64,000 nucleotides of DNA from Escherichia coli (GTDB lineage Bacteria; Pseudomonadota; Gammaproteobacteria; Enterobacterales; Enterobacteriaceae): NCBI RefSeq assembly GCF_045037415.1, contig NZ_CP173438.1. One strand, written 5' to 3'. Positions 8,883-62,347 of the stretch are shown here, piece by piece. Numbering within the stretch: the stretch's first letter is position 1; each line of letters opens with the position of its first letter. The notes under the pieces were generated by a model that searched no databases, was not told where the DNA came from, and worked only from the letters and a program-made list of their open reading frames with translations. The position numbers and the translations under genes are program-made.

Positions 8883-9842
8883 GTGGCACAACGAGATTAT
8901 GTACGCCGCAGCCAACCGGCACCTTCGCGGCGAAAAAAGAGCACCTCACGGAAAAAGCAACGAAATCTGCCTGCGGTTTCTCCCGCTATGGTCGCTATTG
9001 CTGCCGCCGTTCTTGTGACCTTTATCGGTGGTCTGTACTTCATTACGCATCACAAGAAAGAAGAGTCCGAGACGCTGCAAAGCCAGAAAGTGACCGGAAA
9101 CGGACTACCACCAAAACCAGAAGAACGCTGGCGCTACATTAAAGAGCTGGAAAGTCGCCAGCCGGGTGTGCGTGCGCCCACAGAACCTTCTGCCGGTGGT
9201 GAAGTGAAAACGCCGGAGCAACTGACACCAGAACAACGCCAGCTTCTTGAACAAATGCAGGCCGATATGCGCCAGCAGCCAACGCAGCTGGTTGAAGTTC
9301 CGTGGAATGAGCAGACGCCGGAACAGCGTCAGCAAACGCTACAGCGCCAGCGTCAGGCGCAGCAATTAGCGGAGCAGCAACGCCTGGCTCAGCAGTCGCG
9401 TACGACTGAACAAAGCTGGCAGCAGCAGACGCGTACGTCGCAAGCCGCGCCGGTACAGGCGCAACCGCGCCAGTCTAAACCGGCTTCTACTCAGCAGCCG
9501 TACCAGGATCTGCTGCAAACCCCTGCGCACACGACCGCGCAGTCGAAGCCGCAGCAAGCTGCGCCGGTTGCTCGTGCCGCTGACGCGCCAAAACCGACGG
9601 CGGAGAAAAAAGACGAACGCCGCTGGATGGTGCAGTGCGGTTCGTTCAGAGGCGCGGAACAGGCAGAGACGGTACGTGCTCAGCTGGCGTTCGAAGGCTT
9701 TGACTCAAAAATTACCACCAACAATGGCTGGAATCGTGTGGTGATTGGCCCGGTGAAAGGCAAAGAGAACGCAGACAGCACCCTCAATCGCTTGAAGATG
9801 GCGGGTCATACAAACTGCATTCGGCTCGCCGCCGGGGGTTGA
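8883..9842 (+). CDS. ftsN: cell division protein FtsN
   Basis: 319 aa, GTG start; short cytoplasmic tail, one TM helix, Gln/Pro-rich linker, C-terminal SPOR domain. Confidence 0.9.
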   Translation: MAQRDYVRRSQPAPSRRKKSTSRKKQRNLPAVSPAMVAIAAAVLVTFIGGLYFITHHKKEESETLQSQKVTGNGLPPKPEERWRYIKELESRQPGVRAPTEPSAGGEVKTPEQLTPEQRQLLEQMQADMRQQPTQLVEVPWNEQTPEQRQQTLQRQRQAQQLAEQQRLAQQSRTTEQSWQQQTRTSQAAPVQAQPRQSKPASTQQPYQDLLQTPAHTTAQSKPQQAAPVARAADAPKPTAEKKDERRWMVQCGSFRGAEQAETVRAQLAFEGFDSKITTNNGWNRVVIGPVKGKENADSTLNRLKMAGHTNCIRLAAGG

Positions 9843-9866
9843 AACCCTCAAAATCCCCCCCATCTA
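9839..9866 (+). promoter_or_regulatory. sigma-32 heat-shock promoter of hslVU
   Basis: TTGAAA (9839-9844) then 12-13 nt spacer then CCCCATCTA, matching the sigma-32 consensus; the -35 overlaps the ftsN stop codon. Confidence 0.6.
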
Positions 9867-9879
9867 TAATTGCATTATG

Positions 9880-9899
9880 CCCCGTACTTTTGTACGGGG
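9880..9899 (+). other. perfect 8-bp stem-loop in the hslVU 5' leader
   Basis: CCCCGTAC-TTTT-GTACGGGG, 35 nt upstream of the hslV ATG. Confidence 0.45.
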
Positions 9900-9934
9900 T
9901 TTGTACTCTGTATTCGTAACCAAGGGGTCAGCTC

Positions 9935-10465
9935 GTGACAACTATAGTAAGCGTACGCCGTAACGGCCATGTGGTCATCGCTGGTGATGGTCAGGCCACG
10001 TTGGGCAATACCGTAATGAAAGGCAACGTGAAAAAGGTCCGCCGTCTGTACAACGACAAAGTCATCGCGGGCTTTGCGGGCGGTACTGCGGATGCTTTTA
10101 CGCTGTTCGAACTGTTTGAACGTAAACTGGAAATGCATCAGGGCCATCTGGTCAAAGCCGCCGTTGAGCTGGCGAAAGACTGGCGTACCGATCGCATGCT
10201 GCGCAAACTTGAAGCACTGCTGGCAGTCGCGGATGAAACTGCATCGCTTATCATCACCGGTAACGGTGACGTGGTGCAGCCAGAAAACGATCTTATTGCT
10301 ATCGGCTCCGGCGGCCCTTACGCCCAGGCTGCGGCGCGCGCGCTGTTAGAAAACACTGAACTTAGCGCCCGTGAAATTGCTGAAAAGGCGTTGGATATTG
10401 CAGGCGACATTTGCATCTATACCAACCATTTCCACACCATCGAAGAATTAAGCTACAAAGCGTAA
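9935..10465 (+). CDS. hslV: ATP-dependent protease subunit HslV
   Basis: 176 aa; N-terminal Thr ([20 protein letters not shown]) typical of proteasome-like HslV. Confidence 0.95.
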
Positions 10466-10474
10466 GGATCTCCC

Positions 10475-11806
10475 ATGTCTGAAATGACCCCACGCGAAAT
10501 CGTCAGCGAACTGGATAAGCACATCATCGGCCAGGACAACGCCAAGCGTTCCGTGGCGATTGCTCTGCGTAACCGCTGGCGTCGCATGCAGCTCAACGAA
10601 GAGCTGCGCCATGAAGTGACCCCGAAAAATATCCTGATGATCGGCCCGACCGGTGTCGGTAAAACTGAAATCGCCCGTCGTCTGGCTAAGCTGGCGAATG
10701 CGCCGTTCATCAAAGTTGAAGCGACCAAATTCACCGAAGTGGGCTATGTCGGTAAGGAAGTGGATTCTATTATTCGCGATCTGACCGATGCCGCCGTGAA
10801 AATGGTACGCGTCCAGGCTATCGAGAAAAACCGTTATCGCGCTGAAGAACTGGCAGAAGAACGTATTCTCGACGTACTGATCCCACCGGCTAAAAATAAC
10901 TGGGGACAGACCGAACAGCAGCAGGAGCCGTCCGCTGCTCGTCAGGCATTCCGCAAAAAACTGCGTGAAGGCCAGCTTGATGACAAAGAAATTGAGATCG
11001 ATCTTGCCGCAGCACCGATGGGCGTTGAAATTATGGCTCCTCCGGGCATGGAAGAGATGACCAGCCAGCTGCAGTCCATGTTCCAGAACCTGGGCGGTCA
11101 GAAGCAAAAGGCGCGTAAGCTGAAAATCAAAGACGCCATGAAGCTGCTGATTGAAGAAGAAGCGGCGAAACTGGTGAACCCGGAAGAGCTGAAGCAAGAT
11201 GCTATCGACGCTGTTGAGCAGCACGGGATCGTGTTTATCGACGAAATCGACAAAATCTGTAAGCGCGGCGAGTCTTCCGGTCCGGATGTTTCTCGTGAAG
11301 GCGTTCAGCGTGACCTGCTGCCGCTGGTAGAAGGTTGCACTGTTTCCACCAAACACGGGATGGTCAAAACTGACCACATTCTGTTTATCGCTTCTGGCGC
11401 GTTCCAGATTGCGAAACCGTCTGACCTGATCCCGGAACTGCAAGGTCGTCTGCCAATCCGCGTTGAGCTGCAGGCACTGACCACCAGCGACTTTGAGCGT
11501 ATTTTGACCGAGCCGAATGCCTCTATCACCGTGCAGTACAAAGCACTGATGGCAACTGAGGGCGTAAATATCGAGTTTACCGACTCCGGTATTAAGCGCA
11601 TCGCGGAAGCGGCATGGCAGGTGAACGAATCTACCGAAAACATCGGTGCTCGTCGTTTACATACCGTTCTGGAGCGTTTAATGGAAGAGATTTCCTACGA
11701 CGCCAGCGATTTAAGCGGTCAAACTATCACTATTGACGCAGATTATGTGAGCAAACATCTGGATGCGTTGGTGGCAGATGAAGATCTGAGCCGTTTTATC
11801 CTATAA
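10475..11806 (+). CDS. hslU: ATP-dependent protease ATPase subunit HslU
   Basis: 443 aa AAA+ ATPase; Walker A GPTGVGKT; 9 nt after hslV. Confidence 0.95.
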
Positions 11807-61459: not shown

Positions 61460-62347
61460 TTAGCGTTGCGCGATACCTTCATCGACAATTTCAGCCAGCC
61501 GTTGCAAGCGTGGAACGGAGACATCGCGCAGCATGGTTTGTGGATCTTGTGCACCAACAACCGACGCCCAAACCGCTCGTCCAGCCAGGAAGCCCGACGC
61601 ACCACCTTTCATGGCAATACTTACTGCACGGCCAAAAATATCGGCATCAACGCCAGAAGAAAGAATTACCCACGGCATCTTCATCTGATCGTTAAGTTGC
61701 TGACAGGCAGCAAGTAAGGTTTTTTCATCGCCTTTGCCCCCTAATGGCATCTCGGCTTTGTAAAGATCAGCCTCTGTTCCACCAAGCTCTGCGGCGGCGG
61801 CAACAATGGCGCTTTCACGATCAAAGTCCCAACCGCGACGAGGTGGACGCACCACAGGTTCAATAATGCTAACCAGCCCGGCACTACGGCAGCGACGAAC
61901 AAATTTATCAACCATTGCCAGACGTTCCTCTGCGGGTTCATCTTCACGCCAGAGTACAAGTAATTTCATTGCCTTAGCCCCCATTTCACGGGCTTTATGC
62001 GGGTCGACGGACATATCTATTTCAACGCTATCAACCGGGATGCCATTACCTGGGATAAAAAGATCGGCAGCGACAATCAGGCCGCAAGAATTAGCCACAG
62101 CGCCCTGCTCGACTATTTGTTCAAGACAAAATTGTTTATCCGCCAGAACGGCAGAAGCATAAGGAGAAAGGATTCGGGTCGCGGCAACTTTAAAATCGGT
62201 GAGTACACTGTCGGCGATGGGTTTTGGCTGCCCTGCTGCCGCAAACATCAGGCGCATGGCCTCACGCTGATCGACAGCTAACATGGCGAATCCACCACCT
62301 GGGCGGGAGATATCTTTCAGCGTAAATGGGGTGAAGTGGGATGACAT
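61460..62347 (-). CDS. class I aldolase, YihT-like (sulfofructosephosphate / tagatose-bisphosphate aldolase family)
   Basis: 295 aa; [15 protein letters not shown] and [10 protein letters not shown] blocks recalled from YihT/LacD-family aldolases. Confidence 0.78.

Follow-up and report, generated by a model that had tools for sequence, protein, structure and literature searches.

HslVU (ClpQY) is an ATP-dependent protease whose substrates include SulA and RcsA, with a reported role in LpxC turnover, and its level is set partly by the promoter and leader described here. The closest described system is the stem-loop in the 5′ untranslated region of clpQY characterized by Lien, Yu, Liou and Wu (Lien et al. 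2009, Open Microbiol J, PMC2681174), who credit the hslVU promoter to Chuang et al. (1993). In that study, expression of clpQ::lacZ and its induction at 42 °C were dependent on rpoH but independent of rpoS, exchange of a C for T in CCCCAT lowered expression 1.7-fold and abolished heat induction, and mutation of a putative sigma-S -10 element had no effect. A 40-bp deletion in the leader reduced reporter activity, clpQ mRNA and ClpQ protein, and removal of the inverted repeat, which left a leader of 35 nt starting at position 9900 in the numbering used here, lowered ClpQ, the mRNA level and the mRNA half-life after rifampicin addition. Replacement of the 3′ arm by T residues caused a similar loss of mRNA level and ClpQ function, whereas swapping of the arms (GGGGCATG TTTT CATGCCCC), which kept the pairing and changed the sequence, restored the message. 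Neither an RNase E nor an RNase III motif was obvious to the authors in the leader (Lien et al. 2009, PMC2681174).

The window, meaning the whole stretch of 64,000 nucleotides that was analysed, includes the E. coli ftsN-hslV-hslU region, which is 100% identical to that of E. coli Nissle 1917 and of many other genomes (Table 1). The 103-nt element was found in 5425 of 5426 complete E. coli genomes, with at least 99% identity in 5290 of them. The weakest among the matches listed for the 5425 genomes carrying it was an alignment of 101 nt in BM28, a heat-evolved strain with a 2-bp deletion in the C-run (PMC10044804). Primers F1 to F9 of Lien et al. (2009) aligned to the window without mismatch, intended mutations aside. 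A search of Rfam release 15 matched the hairpin and the remaining leader to family RF02401 (ClpQY_promoter) over model positions 1-57 of 57, scoring 63.6 bits where the gathering threshold is 42, with an E value of 2e-13; the consensus structure of the family is exactly the 8-bp stem seen here, and the match ends on the GTG start codon of hslV. RF02401, the stem-loop of Lien et al. (2009), the study behind this family, and the element in the window are thus one and the same, and nothing differs in E. coli.

Table 1. Features of the ftsN-hslV intergenic region and flanking genes (positions in the window).
Feature	Position	Strand	Description	Basis
ftsN CDS	8883..9842	+	Stop TGA 9840-9842; end reads GGG GGT TGA	ORF list; RefSeq annotation of identical Nissle 1917 region
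Sigma-32 -35, TTGAAA	9839..9844	+	Encloses ftsN stop TGA 9840-9842	Direct reading; ORF list
Sigma-32 -10, CCCCATCTA	9858..9866	+	Closes C7 run 9855-9861	
TATAAT, perfect sigma-70 -10 hexamer	9865..9870	+	Overlaps sigma-32 -10; probably incidental	
Putative +1	9874	+	A9874, giving a 61-nt leader; 12 nt past A of CCCCAT	
Leader hairpin	9879..9900	+	5′ arm CCCCGTAC 9880-9887; loop TTTT (UUUU) 9888-9891; 3′ arm GTACGGGG 9892-9899	
Rfam RF02401 ClpQY_promoter match	9880..9937	+	Hairpin and leader up to GTG	Rfam release 15
Pyrimidine-rich, G-poor tract, TTTGTACTCTGTATTC	9900..9915	+	3′ of hairpin; weak U-tract	
Shine-Dalgarno, AAGGGG	9922..9927	+	7 nt 5′ of hslV GTG	Direct reading
hslV	9935-10465	+	GTG start at 9935	ORF list; Nissle 1917 annotation
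hslU	10475-11806	+	Downstream of hslV; operon hslV + hslU 9935..11806 driven by the promoter	

We therefore read the 96-nt interval, with a probability of about 90%, as the RpoH (sigma-32) heat-shock promoter of hslVU (clpQY) followed by a 5′ untranslated leader with an mRNA-protecting hairpin. The first-pass annotation had assigned TTGAAA and its -10 partner to a sigma-32 promoter of hslVU and had proposed that the hairpin could modulate hslVU mRNA stability or translation. Each statement of its observation was confirmed at the coordinates given, and both proposals agree with data already published on this exact sequence (PMC2681174): RpoH dependence and the -10 mutant in the first case, the deletion, disruption and arm-swap mutants in the second. 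The experiments it proposed had also been carried out in substance there, hairpin mutants lowering the message. Reading of the raw sequence thus recovered a real regulatory element, an ordinary promoter and leader hairpin already described, tested and catalogued, all of it being published or of textbook level.

Compared with other sigma-32 promoters such as dnaK P1 and groE (consensus CTTGAAA, 13-15 nt, CCCCATNT), the hslVU promoter shares TTGAAA, CCCCATCT and the commonest spacing. The -10 element was said to be correctly spaced downstream of TTGAAA, and indeed a gap of 13 nt separates TTGAAA from CCCCAT; this counts as 14 by the convention of Nonaka (PMC10044804), and 14 is the commonest value among 50 sigma-32 promoters as given in PMC10044804 with citation of Nonaka et al. 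(2006). The combination TTGAAA-N12-15-CCCCATNT occurred once in the 64 kb, both strands included, against 0.01 expected from shuffled sequences, whereas CCCCATNTA alone was unremarkable (two found, 1.4 expected). A second CCCCATTTA at 62323-62331 on the minus strand falls within the coding sequence of a 295-aa ORF, just past its ATG; no TTGAAA precedes it, and it was dismissed as a chance occurrence. The TATAAT hexamer was also considered as part of a sigma-70 promoter and rejected: no -35 element was present at 16-18 nt, TTGAAA being 20 nt upstream, and the hexamer was not conserved across genera. By the preferred reading, sigma-32 holoenzyme binds TTGAAA and CCCCATCT (9858-9865) and starts transcription a few bases past the -10 element, a step demonstrated in published experiments.

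A departure from the sigma-32 consensus, a G in place of C before TTGAAA, is explained by the position of the promoter. As the first-pass annotation had claimed, the -35 hexamer overlaps the ftsN TGA, and the preceding G is the wobble-adjacent base of the ftsN Gly codon GGT, whose last base opens the hexamer; the overlap forces the G. For comparison, the 170 nt upstream of hslV were inspected at 80 hslV loci from species-representative genomes. About 70 Enterobacterales loci carried TTGAAA-13/14-CCC(C/A)ANNT, nearly always after GGG or more G, and in an alignment of 41 species TTGAAA and the two preceding G were invariant. At most Enterobacterales loci the ORF ending at the TGA within TTGAAA was a full-length FtsN ending in ...GG*, so that the overlap of stop codon and -35 element is old and widespread in this order. 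It is not universal: in Budvicia (L045 and L049) the ftsN stop codon lies about 100 nt 5′ of the -35 element, and in three Pantoea-like loci (L066, L070 and L081) no more than the N-terminal third to half of FtsN could be detected upstream. All five of these exceptions kept GGGTTGAAA and the hairpin. Outside Enterobacterales, the loci of Photobacterium, Vibrio, Grimontia and Aestuariibacter had the motif as CTTGAA; ftsN was still the upstream gene there, but the roughly 100-400 nt between its stop codon and hslV place that codon well 5′ of the promoter. The overlap looks like compaction with a dual coding constraint, and any regulatory meaning of it is putative. As a separate observation, the hslV promoter region of Vibrio sp. 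Hep-1b-8 (L079) is immediately preceded, at about 1290-1450, by many tandem copies of the 7-nt unit CTCTCGC.

A perfect 8-bp stem-loop with a 4-nt loop had likewise been claimed for the leader, and it was borne out at 9880-9899. The arms are 100% complementary, and with G9879·U9900 included the stem has 9 pairs. The folding energy of the 28-nt hairpin was -17 kcal/mol (z = -5.5), and none of 200 shuffled sequences folded as well. Perfect 8-bp hairpins with loops of 3-8 nt arose about 7.8 times per simulated 64-kb window, which corresponds to about 0.01 per 92-nt spacer. In 64 of 74 loci the base of the hairpin lay 12-15 nt past the end of CCCCATNT. The sequence and length of the stem varied at this position, as in the arm pairs CCCCGCAC/GTGCGGGG, CCCTGAGC/GCTCAGGG and CTCCGCGC/GCGCGGAG, with stems of 14-21 pairs in Serratia, Yersinia, Rahnella and Photorhabdus and short stems in Vibrionaceae. 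RF02401 also scored above threshold in Enterobacter, Kluyvera, Erwinia, Pantoea, Hafnia, Serratia, Cedecea and Yersinia, and below it in Tatumella, Dickeya and Rahnella. No match at E ≤ 1 was obtained for the long-stem hairpins of Photorhabdus, Xenorhabdus, Proteus, Siccibacter and Edwardsiella or for the mini-hairpins of Vibrionaceae. The hairpins that were negative or below threshold with this model occupy the same position after the -10 element. In Pectobacterium zantedeschiae (L048), an insertion of ~120 nt relative to P. betavasculorum (L043) was observed in the loop of the leader hairpin (about 1320-1460); it has a terminator-like hairpin of its own, and the outer CCCCG...CGGGG stem and T-run are kept.

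Covariation was examined at nine named pairs in a plain, unfitted MAFFT alignment of the 41 species. Standard pairs were formed in 94% of cells, and eight of the nine pairs had changed on both sides. The observed score was reached by none of 500 shuffles, and pairing fell to 38-50% when the 3′ partner was shifted by 1-3 columns. This covariation is clear evidence for selection on the RNA stem and not on the DNA sequence, and it agrees with the published arm-swap result. It also bears on the reading of the site as DNA, either as a binding site for a dimeric regulator or as a bidirectional terminator of an antisense transcript. The hairpin site is a perfect DNA palindrome, the minus strand also folds (-15 kcal/mol), and a Term-seq antisense 3′ end maps to window position 9865 on the minus strand (K-12 4122347, + strand), 15 nt past the hairpin (Adams et al. 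2021, supplementary file 1). However, this 3′ end appears once across the lists for three conditions, with a score below those of neighbouring entries and no U-tract. Moreover, the arm sequences differ freely between genera while pairing is kept, which is the signature of an RNA stem and not of a protein-binding site, and the arm-swapped mutant was functional (PMC2681174). We consider a role of the palindrome at the DNA level very improbable.

The length of the leader depends on the transcription start, which Lien et al. (2009, PMC2681174) placed 71 bp upstream of the GTG. This figure maps to C9864, inside the CCCCATCT that the same authors call the -10 element, whereas sigma-32 starts are expected about 6-8 nt past the -10. 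A9874 fits this expectation, and in the 41-species alignment it is the only invariant base between the -10 element and the hairpin, with a pyrimidine before it. From this invariance and the -10 geometry, A9874 is most likely the transcription start, with a 61-nt leader. Either the 71-nt figure or the assignment to A9874 must be wrong, and this conflict counts against the reading preferred here. The other counts of Lien et al. (2009), which are lengths of 35 nt and 15 nt for two truncated leaders, agree exactly with the sequence, and a difference of exactly 10 nt suggests a counting slip in the literature. Searches of the start-site data of Kim 2012, Cho 2014 and Cappable-seq 2016 with the gene name, the b-number and the coordinates of both K-12 versions yielded no entry for the hslVU promoter. 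The conflict between the 71-nt figure and promoter geometry might merit specialist attention. An outer helix between UUGCA (9870-9874) and a UGCAA-like segment just before the Shine-Dalgarno sequence (9915-9919), which would close the leader, showed 72% pairing over the 41 species with few compensatory changes, and half of it may sit upstream of the start; it was not accepted.

If transcription starts at A9874, a stable, GC-rich hairpin of 8-9 bp would form at a distance of 5-6 nt from the 5′ end of the transcript. The hairpin shields the hslVU message from decay by its structure and not its sequence, as the published mutants show, and so raises the output of HslV and HslU. Probably, by analogy with ompA and papA, it does so by hindering 5′-end-dependent attack or scanning by RNase E, possibly with RppH. 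Like the 5′ stem-loops of these two messages, the hslVU hairpin is stable, would lie near the 5′ end and raises half-life independently of sequence. It differs from the ompA type in its 5′ single-stranded tail, which would measure 5-6 nt, or 15-16 nt with the start as published; this is longer than the few nucleotides that ompA-type protection is known to tolerate. Furthermore, the published structure-dependent stabilization came from pBAD33 constructs, whose transcripts should carry extra vector sequence at the 5′ end, so that strictly 5′-terminal protection is putative. The disruption mutant, in which a long U-run took the place of the 3′ arm, is not a clean test on its own.

An alternative is that the hairpin acts mainly on translation, mRNA stability being secondary to ribosome loading. 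The CCCC of the 5′ arm is complementary to the GGGG of the Shine-Dalgarno sequence, which was at least 90% conserved in the 41-species alignment, and the hairpin might lock this arm away from it; or the pyrimidine tract might pair weakly with the Shine-Dalgarno sequence as a fourU-like thermometer. In the predicted lowest-energy fold of the 61-nt leader, CUCU (9906-9909) pairs with AGGG of the Shine-Dalgarno sequence, and 88-98% of aligned sequences allow pairing between the pyrimidine columns and the G-run. This pairing had no register-specific support, however, as its value of 67% was hardly changed (65%) when the alignment was slid by one column. The 40-bp deletion affected the translational fusion more severely than the transcriptional fusion, but the transcriptional fusion and Northern blots already showed less mRNA, and Lien et al. 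(2009) found no temperature-sensitive segment (PMC2681174). The Shine-Dalgarno sequence itself lies outside the hairpin. A mainly translational role is thus unlikely, and protection of the message is the reading that we retain.

A second role, as a possible addition to message protection, concerns the upstream gene. The hairpin and its U/C-rich tail could also be the intrinsic terminator of ftsN or a hairpin protecting the ftsN 3′ end; the hslVU promoter would then lie inside the ftsN 3′ UTR, and hslVU RNA would read through the terminator about 6-30 nt past its start. The hairpin shares with intrinsic terminators a GC-rich stem of 8-9 bp and a tetraloop followed by UUUGU, and its orthologues in Erwiniaceae and Pectobacteriaceae are followed by U5-U7. 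It differs from them in that the E. coli U-tract is broken and in that the hairpin is downstream of a promoter, with a net positive effect on the downstream genes. It is the sole stable hairpin between the ftsN stop codon and hslV. Among 74 Enterobacterales loci, T made up 66-81% at positions +4, +6 and +7 after the stem (background, 29%) with almost no G, and nine loci had a T-run of 5-7; the T-run was fully terminator-like in Pantoea, Tatumella, Pectobacterium and Dickeya. A terminator scan, which called for a GC-rich hairpin followed by at least 5 T in 8, detected the orthologous hairpin in Tatumella (L040) and Ca. Pantoea persica (L073), but not that of E. coli with its tail TTTGTACT.

Loci outside Enterobacterales also bear on this. 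In Photobacterium, Grimontia and Aestuariibacter the stop codon of ftsN comes about 100-150 nt earlier and A/G-rich sequence follows the leader hairpin, as it does in the five measured loci outside the order, and one Photobacterium locus (L071) has a separate terminator-like hairpin before the promoter. This contrast between clades is effectively a single phylogenetic comparison, however, and Budvicia keeps the T-rich tail with ftsN ending about 100 nt upstream. In the curated Term-seq lists for three conditions (Adams et al. 2021), neither ftsN nor the hslV leader has a 3′ end on the sense strand, although low ftsN expression could hide one, and deletion of the hairpin lowers and does not raise hslV expression (PMC2681174). 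Use of the hairpin as an ftsN terminator or 3′-end protector is accordingly a tentative proposal, rather doubtful on present evidence. Slightly more doubtful is the broader view that the Enterobacterales spacer is so compacted that one hairpin ends or protects ftsN RNA and also caps and stabilizes an hslVU RNA starting about 6 nt before it, and that in the U5-U7 lineages (Pantoea, Tatumella, Rosenbergiella, Pectobacterium and Dickeya) it acts as a promoter-proximal attenuator. If this were true, read-through of the attenuator may add a second control point on HslVU synthesis. The possible role of the hairpin as ftsN terminator, and as a true promoter-proximal terminator in Erwiniaceae and Pectobacteriaceae, at which the comparative data hint, might merit specialist attention.
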